Source of the DNA: an uncultured Spirochaetaceae bacterium
GTDB lineage: Bacteria; Spirochaetota; Spirochaetia; DSM-27196; PWMO01
Direction: 5' to 3'
NCBI GenBank assembly: GCA_964654185.1
Contig: CAZZIE010000005.1
Location: forward strand, 4,156 to 68,155
Length of the DNA stretch: 64,000 nt
The notes under the pieces were generated by a model that worked only from the letters and a program-made list of their open reading frames with translations, searched no databases and was not told where the DNA came from. Shown piece by piece: positions 354 through 5,929 of the stretch; within the stretch, counting starts at the first letter, position 1; each line of letters opens with the position of its first letter. The translations under genes and the position numbers were made by a program.

Positions 354-2057
354 ATGGCGCGTAAGGGCTCGTCCGCAGACGGACATTTCGAACTGTTCTA
401 CCGGGACGGCTGGGCACATCTGACGGTGTATCCACCCGCCGATGACGGTCAACCGGTGTACCACGACGACATTCGCAACCGCATGCGCGTTCTCGGCGTT
501 CCCCACGTGGATCCCGGACGGATCCGGCAGATCGCCGACGAGGCCACGGGGGAGCCGGTGAAGCTGGTGGAGTGGCCCGACGGCGAACGCCTGGCCTCCC
601 GGGTAATCGTCTCCGTAGCGGAAGACGAGATGGCCGCGACGGTCACGGTTACCGCTCCGAGGAAGGGAGCCGCCCCACCAACCCGCGAGTCCATCCGCGG
701 CGCACTCCAGGAGGCGGGAGTCCTCTTCGGCATTGACGGCGACGCCGTTCACAGCCTCCTGGAGGATCAGCGGTACAACGAGGCCGTGACCGTAGCTCAC
801 GGGCAGCCGGCGGTGCACGCCGAATCGGCGCATATTGAGTACCACTTCAACACCAATCGGGGAAGACCCTACCTGGAGCTCGAGTTCGGACGCATTGATC
901 TGCGAGAGCTCAACTTCATTGAGAACAAGTACGAGGGCGATGTTCTCGCCACGCTGGTCCCCCCGGTGAGCCCGCAGGACGGCCGCACCGTGACCGGTGC
1001 GCCGGTTCCCGCACGGACGGATACCCGGGAGGTGCGCCTGGAGGCCGGCGAGAATACCGTGCTCAGTGACGACGGCACCACCCTCTACGCCGGCATGGAC
1101 GGGAACGCAAAGCTCTCCCGGGGCCGGGTGGTGGTCGAGCCGGTCGTCCACGTCAAGAACGTGAATTACGGGACCGGAAACATCGACTTCGACGGATCCG
1201 TTGTGGTGGAGAAGGACATTGCCGATCGCTTCGTGGTCAAGGCGGGAGGGGACATACAGGTCGGCGGCGGCGTCGGCAGGGCCACACTCATTGCCGGAGG
1301 CAACGTCCTGCTGAAGCGGGGAATCAACGGTGGCGGCGAGGGTCGTATTGAGTGCGGGGGGAACCTCTTCGCGAAGTTCGTGGAGAGCTCCACCGTGCTC
1401 TCGAAGAAGAACGTGCTCCTGGAAGAGGCGATCCTGCACAGTCGCGTTTCGGCGTGGAAGCACTGCCTTCTCAACGGGCGGCGCGCCGAGGTGATCGGGT
1501 CCGCCGTCATTGTCGGGGGGAGCCTCTGGTGCAAGAAGCTCGGAAGCGTTGCTGAGGCGGAGCTCCATGTCGCTGTGGGCATTTCACCTGACTTCGTCCT
1601 GGAGTTCCGCCGCACCCGGGAGCTCCTTGCCGCGCGGGAAGAGCGCCTGTCTACGGTTCAGGAGCAACTCGAACAGCTCGACCGGGCGTTCCAGGAGGGT
1701 CACACCGCCGAGAAGCTGCGCAAGGCGCAGGAGCAACTCGCCGCGGAGGCGACAACGGTGAACCAGGAGGTTCGCGAGCTTCGCCATCTCTTCCACGACA
1801 TGCGCGACCGCATGGAGGCGAGCCGGAAGAGCCTGGTCGTGGTTGAGGACAGCGTTTACAAGGGCGCCGTCATCACCTTCGGCACCGCGGAGTACCGCGC
1901 CCCCGACCGTGGCACCCGCAAGACCATCTTCAAGTTCGACGGCCGGGCCATCCAGGAAGTGGGCTACAATTCCGCCGATGCCCCGAAGATCGATTTCGAA
2001 GAGGAATCCGATCCGGCCGGCACCCCCCGGCCCCCCGGCGAAGAGCCGCCCGCATAG
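354..2057 (+). CDS. FapA / DUF342 family protein (flagellar-assembly-protein-A-like)
   Basis: 567 aa. N-terminus GHFELFYRDGWAHLTVYPP, then a Gly-rich beta-helix-like core (GNIDFDGSVVVEKDI..GGDIQVGGGVGRATLIAGGNVLLKRGINGGGEGRIECGGNLFAKF) and a C-terminal coiled coil. This is the typical DUF342 architecture. Confidence 0.8.
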   Translation: MARKGSSADGHFELFYRDGWAHLTVYPPADDGQPVYHDDIRNRMRVLGVPHVDPGRIRQIADEATGEPVKLVEWPDGERLASRVIVSVAEDEMAATVTVTAPRKGAAPPTRESIRGALQEAGVLFGIDGDAVHSLLEDQRYNEAVTVAHGQPAVHAESAHIEYHFNTNRGRPYLELEFGRIDLRELNFIENKYEGDVLATLVPPVSPQDGRTVTGAPVPARTDTREVRLEAGENTVLSDDGTTLYAGMDGNAKLSRGRVVVEPVVHVKNVNYGTGNIDFDGSVVVEKDIADRFVVKAGGDIQVGGGVGRATLIAGGNVLLKRGINGGGEGRIECGGNLFAKFVESSTVLSKKNVLLEEAILHSRVSAWKHCLLNGRRAEVIGSAVIVGGSLWCKKLGSVAEAELHVAVGISPDFVLEFRRTRELLAAREERLSTVQEQLEQLDRAFQEGHTAEKLRKAQEQLAAEATTVNQEVRELRHLFHDMRDRMEASRKSLVVVEDSVYKGAVITFGTAEYRAPDRGTRKTIFKFDGRAIQEVGYNSADAPKIDFEEESDPAGTPRPPGEEPPA

Positions 2058-2270
2058 TCTCTCCGGCGCCAAATATACATTTTGCTATAAACACACTTGA
2101 CTATATCGATAAGTCAATATAGAGTTGCCCTACAATACATCCAATACAAGTGACACCGTACCGGCGCGTCCGTGCCGCACGATTGTTACCTGCACCCCTT
2201 CGGGGGAGCTGGATCCCGAGCGTCGTGTGCCCGCCGCACTCCCGGTGAGAAGTGTCAAATGGAGAGAGCT

Positions 2271-2891
2271 ATGAAGCGACTATTTGGACTCGCCCTGCTG
2301 GCAGTCCTCCTTATTGTGGCCATCGGCTGTGACAACTCCTCGACCGCAGAGGCGGAAGGGGAAGGTGAAGCACAGGCCCAGGCCGCGGAGATCCCCGAGA
2401 ACGCCATTCCCGTGGAGAACGCCTTCAAGTTCACCCACGTGAACGGGCACAAGGAAGAGAACGAGTTCACCGCCTTCGTCATGTTCGAGTACGAGCAGCT
2501 CGAGACGGTGAAATATCAGGTCGGCTACATTGCCTGCACCTGCCGCAGCCCCGAGGTGAACTACTGGACCGTTGCCTTTGTGGAGATCAACAAGGCCGAC
2601 AACACCATTGAGACCTTCTCCATGGATGAGGACAGCACCGGCAAGTACACCGCCGGCATGTACGGCGACAGTGTGAAGTCCTGGGACGGCACGCCCGTGC
2701 AGCAGCCCTTCTACGACAAGTTCATCCCTGAGAACATCCTTGGCGCGACCGAGGAGCAGATCGACTCCTACGAGGCCATGCACGGCCAGGCGGATGCCTA
2801 CACCGGCGCAACGGTGACCCCGAACAACGCCATGCGCATGCTCCAGGGACTGTTCGACTACCACAACCGCAATTACGGAAGCGACGCGTAA
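2271..2891 (+). CDS. Exported lipoprotein with FMN_bind-like domain and a flavinylation-type motif
   Basis: I start at ATG 2271 (MKRLFGLALLAVLLIVAIGC, lipobox IGC) rather than at the ORF maximum 2172. A C-terminal ..ADAYTGATVTPNNAMRMLQGLF fits the D-x-x-[ST]-G-A-[ST] covalent-FMN site pattern of NqrC/RnfG-type FMN_bind domains. Confidence 0.65.
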   Translation: MKRLFGLALLAVLLIVAIGCDNSSTAEAEGEGEAQAQAAEIPENAIPVENAFKFTHVNGHKEENEFTAFVMFEYEQLETVKYQVGYIACTCRSPEVNYWTVAFVEINKADNTIETFSMDEDSTGKYTAGMYGDSVKSWDGTPVQQPFYDKFIPENILGATEEQIDSYEAMHGQADAYTGATVTPNNAMRMLQGLFDYHNRNYGSDA

Positions 2892-2940
2892 CGTCTGTTG
2901 CGTCGCGACGACTGACAAAACTACACGGGAGGTATCCCCC

Positions 2941-3831
2941 ATGCGACGAATTGCATTACTGCTTGTTGCAGTGCTTCTTGCTGTGCTGGTCATCGGCTGT
3001 TCTTCGACTGCCGAGCAGACCACACTCACCGGTGATGAAGAGATCACCATGGCCACCATCGATGAGTATCTGAATGCCGACGCCCGTTTCGTTGACCTGC
3101 GTGACTTCGCAGACATGTTCAGCGGCGGCTACGTTGCCGGCTTTGAGGTCGTGCCCTTCTTCGAGTACCTCGAGGGCCGCGCCCTTGTGCGGAACAACGG
3201 CTGGGAGTACTCCTCCGCCGATGTGGCAAACGAGGCCGTGCTCGAGAACATCTTTGGACCCAAGGAAGAGCCCGTTGTCCTGATGTGCGGTTCCGGCACC
3301 CGCGCCGGTTACGTGAAGAACGCGCTGAAAGACATTGGCTACACCACCGTCTTCAACGCCGGCGGCATTCGTGACTACGACGGAGAGAACAAGATCCTCG
3401 GTGACGGCGAGTACGCCGGTCTGGAAGCGCTCCCCGAAGCTGTCACCATGGCCAACATTGACCAGTACCTCGGACGCGAAGGCGCCAAATACGTCGACCT
3501 TCGCAACGTCGAGGACAAGTACGTCGGCGGCTACATCGACGGCTTTGAGGTGGTCTCCTTCTTCCAGTATCTCGAAGGCCGCGCCTTCGTCCGCAACAAC
3601 GGCTGGGAGTTCTCGGAAGAGGACATTGAGTCCGCAGCTGTCCTGGAGAACGTCTTCGGCCCGAAGGATCGCGAAGTATTCGTGATGTGCGGCTCCGGAA
3701 CGCGTTCCGGCTACACGAAGGAAGCCCTCGAGGCCATTGGCTACGAAGAGGTCTACAACGTAGGCGGCATTCGGGACTATCAGGGAGACAACAAGGTCCT
3801 TGGCGACTCCAGCTTCTCCCTGCAGCTCTAG
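2941..3831 (+). CDS. Lipoprotein with two tandem rhodanese-like domains
   Basis: Signal and lipobox MRRIALLLVAVLLAVLVIGCSS. Two roughly 119-aa repeats each carry a C-x5-R type active-site loop (MCGSGTRAGY and MCGSGTRSGY) followed by GGIRDY. Confidence 0.8.
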   Translation: MRRIALLLVAVLLAVLVIGCSSTAEQTTLTGDEEITMATIDEYLNADARFVDLRDFADMFSGGYVAGFEVVPFFEYLEGRALVRNNGWEYSSADVANEAVLENIFGPKEEPVVLMCGSGTRAGYVKNALKDIGYTTVFNAGGIRDYDGENKILGDGEYAGLEALPEAVTMANIDQYLGREGAKYVDLRNVEDKYVGGYIDGFEVVSFFQYLEGRAFVRNNGWEFSEEDIESAAVLENVFGPKDREVFVMCGSGTRSGYTKEALEAIGYEEVYNVGGIRDYQGDNKVLGDSSFSLQL

Positions 3832-3923
3832 TGCTGCAGCGTTGATCCGACTTACCCTGGGGTGAGTCACGTCCAGGCCGCGCCGCTCGCAGGGGTTACC
3901 TTTCGGCGACGGCTGGATTCCGA

Positions 3924-3956
3924 GGCCGGTGAGTGTGATCACTCATCGGCCTTTTT
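3924..3956 (+). terminator. Rho-independent terminator after the FMN-binding/rhodanese operon
   Basis: GGCCGGTGAGTG-tgat-CACTCATCGGCC forms a 12-bp stem with one G-U pair, followed by TTTTT at 3952-3956. Confidence 0.7.
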
Positions 3957-3974
3957 CGTGAAGACGGCCGCGCA

Positions 3975-4059
3975 CCGGTGCACGGGCCGGCAGCGGGCCG
4001 GCGCGGGGATTGCCACGCGCGCCGGTCCGGGGGCCGGTGCACGGGCCGGCAGCGGGCCG
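3975..4059. repeat. Perfect 26-bp direct repeat, two copies, 59-bp period
   Basis: CCGGTGCACGGGCCGGCAGCGGGCCG occurs at 3975-4000 and again at 4034-4059, in the non-coding region upstream of the 4130 gene. Confidence 0.85.
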
Positions 4060-4129
4060 CCACGCGGGGCACCGCACCGGTAGCCACGGACTGCCCCAGC
4101 TGATACGTTACACACCACCGGAGAATGAC

Positions 4130-5020
4130 ATGACAAACGAGCACTCACGAAAACCCAGAGGCATGCGACGCGGCGTCCTCCGCCTTGGTGCCCTCGCCGC
4201 CATCCCGGGATTTCTCCTTTCCTGCACCACCATGGAGCGCCGCGCCGGCGCCTACGTCCGGGATGCACGGGAGACGGCATTCACGGAGGAGAGCAGCGGC
4301 GAGGAAGTAATTACCGAGGCGGATCTGAAGGATCTTCCACCGGTCGTACAGCGCTACTTTCGATTCGCCCGGGTTGTCGGGAAGCCGAAGATCCGCAGCT
4401 TCGGGTTTGTCATGGAGGGACGGATTCGGCAGTCCGCGGATGCTGCGTGGATGCCCTTTGTCTCGCGGCAGTACAACGATCTGCGAAATCCGGCGCGCGT
4501 TTACTACATCAACGCAGAGAACAACCCCATGACCGGCATTGACAGCTATCTGGAGGGCAAGGGGCGCATGCACATCAAGCTCTTCAATCTGATCACCGTG
4601 GGTGACTCGACCGGACCGGAGATGGACCGGGCCGCGCTGGTGACCTTTCTGAACGATCTCATGGTTTCCCCGAACGCCTACTTCTCGGTTCCCGTCCAGT
4701 GGCGTCAGATCGACGACTCTCATGCGGAGCTCTCCCTCACCCACGCAGGCATGACGGTCACCGCAACGCTCACCTTCGACGCGGAGGGACGCATTGTGAA
4801 CTGGGAGAGTAACGACCGCTACGCCGAGATCGACGGCGCCTTCCTCCCGGATCGCTGGTCCACACCCATTGAGGAGTACGGGGAGCTCCGGGGCATGCGC
4901 GTCCCGGCCAAAGCGCGGGGCGTCCACAACGTCGACGGCAACCCCTACACCTACGTGGAGCTGAACCGCCTGACCGCGCTGGAGTGGAATCCCGACGCCC
5001 TCCCCGGCGCCGGACGCTAA
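4130..5020 (+). CDS. Hypothetical lipoprotein (possibly DUF6544-like)
   Basis: I start at ATG 4130 (MTNEHSRKPRGMRRGVLRLGALAAIPGFLLSC, lipobox LLSC). The conserved-looking block DLKDLPPVVQRYFRF recalls DUF6544 from memory only. Coding-type codon bias. Confidence 0.55.
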   Translation: MTNEHSRKPRGMRRGVLRLGALAAIPGFLLSCTTMERRAGAYVRDARETAFTEESSGEEVITEADLKDLPPVVQRYFRFARVVGKPKIRSFGFVMEGRIRQSADAAWMPFVSRQYNDLRNPARVYYINAENNPMTGIDSYLEGKGRMHIKLFNLITVGDSTGPEMDRAALVTFLNDLMVSPNAYFSVPVQWRQIDDSHAELSLTHAGMTVTATLTFDAEGRIVNWESNDRYAEIDGAFLPDRWSTPIEEYGELRGMRVPAKARGVHNVDGNPYTYVELNRLTALEWNPDALPGAGR

Positions 5021-5059: not shown

Positions 5060-5929
5060 ATGCACACCCCCGAAATACTCACCGATCGCGCGCAGCAAGC
5101 TCTCGATCTTCTCCAGGATTGCGCGGTCTGTCCGCGGAAGTGCCGCGTCGACCGTAGCGCGGATGAGCTCGGCGTCTGCGGGATCGGGCGGGAGGCGCTG
5201 GTGGCGAGCTACGGACCCCACTTCGGCGAGGAGCGGCCCCTCGTCTCCCGGGGCGGCTCGGGTACCATCTTCTTTTCCGGGTGCAACCTGCTCTGCAGCT
5301 TCTGCCAGAACTGCGACATCAGCCACGGCCGGGTCGGCCGCCGCACGGATGCCGAAGGGCTGGCGTGGATCATGCGCTACCTCCAGCGTTCCGGCTGCGA
5401 GAACATCAACCTGGTCACGCCGAGCCACGTCGTCCCGCAGATCCTGGAAGCTCTCGCTCTCGCCGACGACGTGACCCTGCCGATCGTCTACAACACCAAC
5501 AGCTACGACTCCCTGGAAACCCTTCGCCTCCTGGACGGGGTCGTCGACATCTACCTGGCGGACTTCAAGTTCTGGAAGGGCGAAGGCCTCCCTTTTTTGT
5601 CTGGAGTCGATGATTACGGCGCTACCGCCGCAGAGGCCCTTCGCGAGATGCACCGGCAAGTCGGGGATCTGGAGGTACGAGGCGGGCGGGCGGTCCGCGG
5701 CCTCATGGTGCGCCACCTGGTCATGCCCGGCGACGTCTCGGATACGGGGCGGATCATGGAGTTCATCGCCGGCCTTTCGAAAGACACCTACGTGAACGTC
5801 ATGCCGCAGTACACCCCGCACTACCACGCCGTACACGACCCGGTCATCGGCCGACGCATCTCCGAGCGGGAGTTCGTCGCCGCAGTGGACGCCGCGCGGC
5901 AGGCGGGGCTGCGGCGGATCGAGACATGA
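5060..5929 (+). CDS. Radical SAM protein, PflX-like (pyruvate formate-lyase activase-related)
   Basis: CNLLCSFCQN is a CxxxCxxC radical-SAM cluster motif. An additional N-terminal Cys cluster CAVCPRKCRVDR..GVCG is present. Length 289 aa. Confidence 0.8.
   Translation: MHTPEILTDRAQQALDLLQDCAVCPRKCRVDRSADELGVCGIGREALVASYGPHFGEERPLVSRGGSGTIFFSGCNLLCSFCQNCDISHGRVGRRTDAEGLAWIMRYLQRSGCENINLVTPSHVVPQILEALALADDVTLPIVYNTNSYDSLETLRLLDGVVDIYLADFKFWKGEGLPFLSGVDDYGATAAEALREMHRQVGDLEVRGGRAVRGLMVRHLVMPGDVSDTGRIMEFIAGLSKDTYVNVMPQYTPHYHAVHDPVIGRRISEREFVAAVDAARQAGLRRIET

Follow-up and report, generated by a model that had tools for sequence, protein, structure and literature searches.

Described systems and the locus

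ApbE-type flavinylation is now regarded as a third general route for extracytoplasmic electron transfer, beside cytochromes and thioredoxin-like proteins. The FMN_bind proteins flavinylated by ApbE, of the NqrC, RnfG and PplA types, are exported with a Sec-type signal (PMC8238504, PMC11334425) and carry the C-terminal motif D-x-x-[ST]-G-A-[ST] (defined in PMC8238504 and PMC4348036), followed by a helix. In the NqrC structure, one Thr is flavinylated, another bonds flavin N3 and an ETPGLG loop clamps the ring (PMC4348036). No system in the main texts of the two flavinylation surveys (PMC8238504, PMC11334425) involves a sulfurtransferase and the word 'rhodanese' does not occur there; their supplementary tables may list such clusters. 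Here we report a two-gene locus in a window of 64,000 nt, the whole stretch analysed and the frame for all coordinates, from an uncultured Spirochaetaceae bacterium (assembly GCA_964654185.1, contig CAZZIE010000005.1). Gene 1 (2271..2891, + strand; ATG 2271 to TAA 2891, 206 aa, protein P0001) encodes a probable divergent FMN_bind-family lipoprotein, named FMNx, and gene 2 (2941..3831, + strand; ATG 2941 to TAG 3831, 296 aa, protein P0002) a lipoprotein with two rhodanese domains. An exported flavoprotein with its own Cys pair, tied to a rhodanese, would link the flavin and thiol routes to sulfane-sulfur chemistry.

FMNx resembles the described ApbE substrates in its Sec-type signal, in its C-terminal motif and following helix and in a weak but consistent profile match. 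Like them, it has an ApbE in the genome or, in other branches, in the cluster. Unlike NqrC, RnfG and the PplA-type proteins, FMNx is strongly diverged in its N-terminal two thirds, has two His residues and a CxCR motif that do not vary within the family, and has as its constant partner a rhodanese rather than a membrane electron-transfer protein or reductase. We regard the pair as an exported flavoprotein system of the ApbE type, to which a dithiol and a new dedicated partner have been added. The first-pass annotation of this DNA was not aware of the pairing as a described module, and we found no paper on it in searches combining flavinylation, ApbE or FMN-binding with rhodanese, which did not cover the survey supplements.

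In mechanism, Npsr/CoADR-RHD (Shewanella loihica, Bacillus anthracis, Archaeoglobus fulgidus) comes closest, as an analogy and not as family membership. As described for Npsr, a rhodanese surface Cys first accepts sulfur and a Cys next to FAD then reduces it (PMC7969121). Npsr and the FMNx pair both have a flavin (predicted in FMNx), a redox Cys (which in FMNx would lie beside the flavin), a rhodanese Cys as first sulfur acceptor (putative in gene 2), a rhodanese that is fused or tightly linked, and sulfide as the proposed product. Npsr is however cytoplasmic, depends on NADH and FAD, has the pyridine-nucleotide disulfide oxidoreductase fold and binds CoA, whilst the FMNx pair is exported, has no Pfam match to Pyr_redox in either protein and would hold FMN via a phosphoester.

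DsbD-type flavinylation clusters are described as containing DsbD, a thioredoxin-like protein, DUF3570 and the CXC protein DUF4266 (PMC8238504). They share with the FMNx family a conserved CXC and extracytoplasmic flavinylation with thiol-disulfide chemistry (both predicted for FMNx), and some FMNx branches adjoin CxxC proteins. In the DsbD-type system the CXC protein stands apart and the substrate belongs to another family. By contrast, FMNx combines the CxC and the flavinylation motif in one small protein, its constant partner is a rhodanese, and neither protein of the pair matches Pfam DUF3570 or DUF4266 at E <= 1. The E. coli proteins PspE and GlpE resemble gene 2 in their rhodanese fold and single catalytic Cys in a six-residue loop, PspE being the best named match. 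Gene 2 differs from both in having two active-type domains in tandem, a lipid anchor and, as its constant partner, a predicted flavoprotein. Rhodanese-linked reduction of thiosulfate or S0 has been described in a halophilic spirochaete (PMC3035371) and in Halanaerobium (PMC5497025), and the rhodanese-like protein RdlA of thiosulfate-reducing fermenters (Halanaerobium, Spirochaeta smaragdinae) is likened to gene 2 by description only.

FMNx and rhodanese genes are paired and fused across genomes

The family is rare: an FMNx HMM run against all of 1.84 billion representative proteins recovered 95 with E <= 0.001, of which 73 reached 1e-10 and 21 reached 1e-30. A genome scan with one genome per species yielded 27 FMNx loci, mostly in spirochaete metagenome-assembled genomes (Alkalispirochaeta, Salinispira, Oceanispirochaeta, Sphaerochaetaceae, Treponema), with one in Lachnospirales and one in Izimaplasma. 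Marispirochaeta aestuarii is a carrier that can be cultivated. By tblastn, a rhodanese gene directly adjoined FMNx in 26 of the 27 loci; among the 43 well-flanked loci of the metagenome scan described below, 40 had one adjacent. The neighbourhood survey suggested in the first-pass annotation has confirmed that the pair is strongly co-conserved, and it is also found fused. The sole unpaired genome locus, L018, holds a second FMNx copy, and the other copy in the same genome (L019) is paired. Partner rhodaneses had two domains in 24 of the 26 paired loci and one domain in L033 and L034, and gene order was reversed in L035.

An even sampling of the phylum, covering 401 genomes, showed the association as well. 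Seven of them had FMNx, and four had the rhodanese type of gene 2 (E <= 1e-15), all four with FMNx adjacent. Two of the remaining three FMNx carriers were inspected and both had a more divergent rhodanese directly downstream.

FMNx and rhodanese domains were fused in at least six proteins and in both orders. FMNx shares one frame of 405 aa with a single rhodanese domain in L033 and is joined to a rhodanese in the FMNx + rhodanese proteins P0123 (419 aa) and P0146 (458 aa), to two rhodanese domains in P0122 (551 aa) and P0149 (680 aa), and in the opposite order, rhodanese + FMNx, in P0124 (336 aa). A Pfam scan of 10 long family members accounted for five fusions. Fusion in both orders implies direct physical cooperation of FMNx and rhodanese. 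We consider it very probable that the pair is a real, conserved and exported two-protein functional unit, in which a CxC protein of FMN_bind descent is combined with a rhodanese. In P0123, two further DAVSGAT motifs of the flavinylation type follow the signal peptide directly (residues 24-38).

No third gene was common to more than eight of the 27 genome loci. The best candidate was an apparent tandem-FMN_bind lipoprotein of ~265 aa with two D-x-[IV]-[ST]-G-A-[ST] motifs, encoded just upstream of the pair in five of the 27 (L012:4932-5729, L017:5002-5829, L019:4929-5702, L021:4491-5303 and L025:4937-5737). None of the 27 had an ApbE gene inside 6 kb.

FMNx is a probable divergent FMN_bind lipoprotein with an invariant CxC pair

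The Pfam FMN_bind model (PF04205) matched the gene 1 protein at E 0.0029, with 18.6 bits against a cut-off of 22, and NCBIfam gave a faint RnfG match alone. Across the family the signal was consistent: 35 of 35 aligned members matched FMN_bind at E <= 0.1 (best 1.7e-5), and the fused relatives P0124 (25.0 bits) and P0123 (22.3 bits) cleared the cut-off. We also compared FMNx by hhalign with canonical FMN_bind proteins, including the NqrC and RnfG homologues and two small FMN_bind lipoproteins of its own genome. The probability was 87.9% across 77 columns and rose to 95.6% (E 1.3e-8), over the last 30 columns only, when broader alignments were used on both sides. An ESM Atlas search with the homologue P0040 returned only unnamed or 'FMN-binding' clusters (best score 0.93), which are leads and not evidence. 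The relationship to FMN_bind claimed for gene 1 in the first-pass annotation is thus weak for the single protein but holds family-wide, and these profiles support gene 1 as a divergent FMN_bind protein.

The sequence D175-A-Y-T-G-A-T181 (2793..2813, + strand) matches the ApbE-type motif D-x-x-[ST]-G-A-[ST], as previously noted, with T181 as the predicted acceptor. In the close family (35 sequences) the acceptor Thr was invariant, together with H56, C89-T90-C91-R92, M170-H171-G172, D175 and the remainder of G179-A-T-V-T-P-N-N186. A diverse alignment (27 sequences, identity down to 27%) retained H56, Y82, Q83, C89, C91, R92, G132, D175, V182 and H198 as invariant. In the divergent alignment, every one of the 23 sequences had Ser or Thr at the acceptor position. 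We also counted motifs in 27 FMNx copies (the 27 genome loci and this locus, minus L034, where the gene is split) and found TGAT in 24, SGAT in two and TGSS in one.

In the 77-column hhalign alignment, T181 fell on the GAT-motif Thr of the host's NqrC homologue, with GATVT on GATRT and T183 two residues later, and TAGMYG aligned with the TPGLGG flavin-pocket motif. We infer from sequence comparison that FMNx is flavinylated, with FMN most likely attached covalently at T181. The Cys pair reported in the first-pass annotation, residues 89-91, is part of the invariant motif C89-T90-C91-R92 (2535..2546, + strand), which holds the only cysteines of the mature protein; among 78 metagenome copies it was CTCR in 75 and CGCR in one. 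CxCR lies a few residues before S93-T100, and the loop after CTCR is outside the aligned region. By gap-free extension of the alignment, S93-T100 would match the NqrC Leu/Trp loop that squeezes the isoalloxazine, which would place the CxC pair close to the flavin.

Lipoprotein signals had been claimed for both proteins and were seen by eye in each. The signal peptide and lipobox of gene 1 (2271..2330, + strand; MKRLFGLALLAVLLIVAIGC) end in ...VAIGC20, with Cys20 at the lipobox position, and the hydrophobic signal of the gene 2 product ends in the lipobox ...VIGC20. Most of the 35 aligned gene 1 homologues had the lipobox-position Cys, and a few had an ordinary signal peptide.

Gene 2 encodes a tandem rhodanese

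Pfam Rhodanese (PF00581) matched the gene 2 protein in two stretches (8.8e-15, 55.4 bits against a cut-off of 22.2), and the two intact CGSGTR[AS]G loops read earlier are both present. The active-site loop of domain 1 is C116-G-S-G-T-R-A-G (3286..3309, + strand), where C116 is the only Cys of the domain, and that of domain 2 is C250-G-S-G-T-R-S-G (3688..3711, + strand), again with one Cys in its half of the protein. The domains share 61% identity at the protein level (77 of 126 positions, 3043-3828). With halves this diverged and a two-domain form that recurs in 24 of 26 paired loci, Izimaplasma among them, a recent internal duplication of gene 2 is excluded.

Among named models and solved chains, the closest were thiosulfate sulfurtransferases of the PspE type and a rhodanese-like protein with two domains, all far under equivalog cut-offs. 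The PspE and GlpE equivalogs (NCBIfam NF007627 and NF001195) scored 51.7 and 19.4 bits against 102 each. By these profiles, gene 2 encodes a rhodanese that is orthologous to neither PspE nor GlpE. The catalytic loop has six residues in sulfurtransferase rhodaneses and seven in Cdc25/Acr2. Both domains here have the six-residue loop CGSGTR, which excludes an arsenate-reductase or phosphatase-type rhodanese.

ApbE and redox machinery of the host genome

The first-pass annotation found no ApbE nearby and proposed a search elsewhere in the genome. In the host assembly (368 contigs, 93.7% complete) the single ApbE match (314.7 bits) was on another contig (C37), and its frame opens with a lipoprotein-type signal (...LLFGSC), as expected of an exported enzyme. 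ApbE was also present in seven of nine other pair-bearing genomes tested. The host further encodes a pair made up of CcdA and a TlpA-like protein, and the two small FMN_bind lipoproteins mentioned above. It has Nqr-like (NqrB-C-D-E, contig C128) and Rnf (RnfD-G-E-A, contig C53) operons, each with its own flavinylation-motif subunit.

On host contig C179 (L044:1-1650), a CoADR-like gene encodes two rhodanese domains, and the cysteine is absent from the first of them. Tail-to-tail with the unpaired FMNx of L018 is a gene for a CoADR/Npsr-type pyridine-nucleotide disulfide oxidoreductase with a C-terminal rhodanese (L018:6724-8844 (-)). These CoADR-type genes agree, albeit anecdotally, with a sulfane-sulfur theme.

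Metagenome branches add flavin and thiol genes to the pair

We scanned metagenomes with a divergent sub-alignment and obtained 80 loci, in which ORFs were clustered and clusters named by Pfam on representatives. FMNx was recovered in 78, of which 43 were well flanked (at least 1.2 kb on both sides). In addition to the adjacent rhodanese, these 43 loci had ApbE within 1.5 kb of FMNx in 20, a CxxC lipoprotein (a thioredoxin-like partner) in 16, a membrane protein in 13 (its CxxC domain exported, two of its membrane cysteines invariant), a canonical FMN_bind lipoprotein in 11, an Hpre_diP_synt_I-type membrane protein in 10 and RnfD in eight. The accessory genes encode either a flavin-installing enzyme or proteins that resemble carriers of reducing equivalents (flavin domains, CxxC proteins).

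Four layouts were recognised. Layout A, the type of this locus, consists of FMNx followed by a tandem rhodanese, alone. In layout B, rhodanese, FMNx and ApbE lie in that order beside an Rnf/hydrogenase cluster. Layout C has an FMN_bind lipoprotein, a rhodanese, FMNx, a CxxC lipoprotein and a CxxC membrane protein. In layout D, a cysteine-less rhodanese and ApbE are divergent from a canonical-FMN_bind::FMNx fusion, which a rhodanese follows; Pfam bears this out in L045, where ApbE is in the FMNx cluster. A canonical FMN_bind domain is fused N-terminally to FMNx in some copies.

Many relatives have the Ala of the SGAT motif replaced (GSS, NSS, SSS). The metagenome loci mostly had GSS, and ApbE was beside FMNx in 33 of the 78. 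One inference is that the deviant motif comes with a dedicated ApbE transferase; GSS also occurs in layout C loci that lack ApbE.

The layout C membrane proteins (~400 aa; L035:3597-4850, L087:7106-8314 and 13 further loci) have a signal peptide, an exported CxxC domain and a membrane part that contains ExxC and, without variation, NPC. They had no Pfam or NCBIfam match and were only weakly glutaredoxin-like (E 0.017). This family may be an undescribed DsbD-like thiol electron transporter. The rhodaneses of the other layouts vary in their loops. In layout B (L054:5091-5912, L061:5081-5905 and others) the Cys is shifted, giving ADGCIR against CxxGxR, and an unannotated C-terminal domain of ~120 aa is added. 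In layout D the rhodanese-like gene beside ApbE, with which it is co-transcribed (L045:2734-3435 (-); L099-L127), has lost the catalytic Cys, with the loop ISTAGVE, and the rhodanese beside FMNx retains it as CQ[GS]G[GA]R.

A proposed sulfane-sulfur reductase and its alternatives

The first-pass annotation suggested periplasmic sulfur redox chemistry, a reading that these comparisons support, and we propose that the module acts as a sulfane-sulfur reductase. Both proteins would be lipid-anchored in the spirochaete periplasm, where the single exported ApbE of the host would attach FMN covalently to Thr181, and flavin and a redox-active dithiol/disulfide (Cys89-x-Cys91) would sit side by side in FMNx. 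Gene 2, as the dedicated rhodanese of FMNx with one catalytic Cys per domain, would take sulfane sulfur from polysulfide, organic persulfides or thiosulfate to form a Cys persulfide. Electrons would reach the flavin from a periplasmic or membrane donor encoded outside the locus, with the small FMN_bind lipoproteins, Rnf or Nqr, and the CcdA/TlpA-like thiol pathway as candidates in this host. The CxC pair would next receive them from the flavin and use them to turn the persulfide on the rhodanese into sulfide, so that the module would provide an external electron sink for a fermenter or act as a detoxifier. We hold the full mechanism, a flavinylated extracytoplasmic flavin-dithiol-persulfide relay that reduces sulfane sulfur, with moderate confidence.

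Several observations weigh against this proposal. The gene 1 protein scores under the Pfam FMN_bind gathering score, the most confident hhalign match spans just 30 columns, and in PDB sequences the family profile picked up the motif region of RnfG alone, with an E of about 1. Closeness of the CxC pair to the flavin depends on gap-free extrapolation past the aligned region. No electron donor gene is encoded at the locus, and hhalign of the layout C CxxC membrane protein against the host CcdA gave 0.7% probability for DsbD/CcdA homology. ApbE had no match in two of the nine other pair-bearing genomes, G402 (1.2 Mb) and G407, whose completeness was not reported. Three of the 43 well-flanked loci (L068, L070 and L078) have FMNx and ApbE without a rhodanese, L068 and L070 looking like one sequence. 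Because many loci are near-identical or kin, and because the metagenome scan pattern leaned towards one motif variant, the counts make the loci look more independent than they are. The host genome, 93.7% complete, gave no match above cut-off for an AsrC-type sulfite reductase, and thiosulfate is therefore disfavoured as a full respiratory substrate. Finally, nothing fixes the electron direction or the substrate, and the same parts would suit sulfide oxidation.

Run oxidatively, the module would oxidise sulfide or thiols at the CxC/flavin in the manner of sulfide:quinone oxidoreductase (SQR) and pass the persulfide to the rhodanese, yielding for example thiosulfate or polysulfide, with electrons leaving via the flavin to an acceptor such as oxygen, a quinone-linked protein or another flavoprotein, as a sulfide detoxification for sulfidic habitats. 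A flavin, a Cys pair and a rhodanese fit such a pathway equally well, and SQR works with a rhodanese. Carriers are recorded from soda-lake, hypersaline and marine sediment samples, and the missing reductant-supplying partner at this locus is likewise in its favour. We nevertheless think this direction unlikely. No oxygen- or quinone-reactive partner is conserved beside the pair, whilst the CxxC lipoproteins and CxxC membrane protein of other branches resemble reductant delivery, even with DsbD homology not found, and ApbE-flavinylated exported proteins are described mostly as outward electron carriers (PMC8238504).

Generic thiol-disulfide maintenance or folding is a still less probable role. 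Once the single-Cys rhodanese or other exported cysteines had been sulfenylated, FMNx would return them to the reduced state; alternatively, it would be a flavin-dependent sulfhydryl oxidase making disulfides with the rhodanese Cys as carrier. A CxC beside a flavin does recall flavin sulfhydryl oxidases, and a part in disulfide chemistry has been reported for E. coli PspE. The thioredoxin-like partners in 16 of the 43 well-flanked loci and the CXC protein DUF4266 in published DsbD-type flavinylation clusters (PMC8238504) point the same way. Generic repair, however, needs no dedicated rhodanese, and here one is fused to FMNx in both orders, is never found without FMNx in the phylum sample (4/4) and keeps the sulfurtransferase CxxGxR loop form in both domains.

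Least probable of the three is an unflavinylated FMNx, an FMN_bind-derived scaffold holding a metal or sulfur species via Cys89, Cys91, His56 and His198 and exchanging it with the rhodanese. H56, C89, C91, R92 and H198, invariant across the 27 diverse sequences, would suit a metal site, and the sub-threshold FMN_bind score, the replaced SGAT Ala in many relatives and the two carriers with no ApbE found agree with it. The last motif Ser/Thr is however retained in all 23 divergent sequences, one fusion protein (P0123) bears its two extra DAVSGAT motifs, and FMNx has canonical FMN_bind domains fused to it or encoded next door. Adjoining ApbE genes, moreover, are carried by the deviant-GSS branches (33/78 metagenome loci) and by none of the 27 genome loci, where 26 of the 27 counted copies have the canonical TGAT/SGAT. 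An iron-sulfur cluster on the Cys and His residues is unlikely, because the signal is of the Sec/lipoprotein type without a twin-arginine motif, which argues against a cofactor inserted in the cytoplasm.

If the pair, as a sulfane-sulfur reductase, does reduce polysulfide- or thiosulfate-derived sulfur, it is a testable candidate for the missing electron-delivery step in rhodanese-dependent sulfide production. Fermenters of saline, subsurface and sulfidic habitats carry out that process, which is important in souring and in the cycling of sulfur. With two small proteins plus ApbE, the module should be easy to reconstitute. More speculatively, and with the balance in our view tilted against it, the pair could be a new type of sulfur reductase, without molybdenum, haem or an iron-sulfur cluster and assembled outside the cytoplasm, which would let fermentative anaerobes (spirochaetes, Izimaplasma-like bacteria, some clostridia) shed electrons to polysulfide, elemental sulfur or thiosulfate. 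If true, this could explain sulfide from rhodanese-positive fermenters without Psr/Phs-type enzymes, and FMNx would represent a further class of ApbE substrate, new in that a single small domain couples the chemistry of a flavin with that of a dithiol.

Organization and surroundings of the locus

The two ORFs are co-oriented on the + strand and separated by a 49-nt spacer (2892-2940); the gene boundaries, this gap and a terminator at 3924-3956 were all correctly placed in the first-pass annotation. Gene 1 starts at 2271 and not at the upstream GTG at 2172 because its homologues begin at the same Met. Reading of the sequence placed a purine-rich ribosome-binding stretch before both start codons.

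A promoter-like site, TTGACT-17-TAGAGT (2097..2125, + strand), lies in an AT-rich island 5' of gene 1. It was the sole sigma-70-like match in 1900-4300 (9 of 12 positions); shuffled sequences averaged 0.6 sites, so it is suggestive. Downstream of gene 2, the intrinsic terminator (3924..3956, + strand) has a 12-bp GC-rich stem (GGCCGGTGAGTG / CACTCATCGGCC) and the loop TGAT, followed by TTTTT. A 66-nt fold of this site had -32.8 kcal/mol (z = -5.2), a stability that all 200 shuffles fell short of; a consensus terminator scanner missed it. An Rfam search of 1900-4300 gave no match at E <= 1, and the leader therefore contains no FMN or other riboswitch that it would detect. Gene 1 and gene 2 form a self-contained two-gene operon.

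Further downstream are genes for a DUF6544/DUF6920 lipoprotein (4130-5020) and a small radical-SAM protein (5060-5929), neither of which other genomes keep beside the pair. The stretch 3973-4060, lying after the terminator and before the first of these genes, contains a GC-rich sequence of ~26 nt twice.

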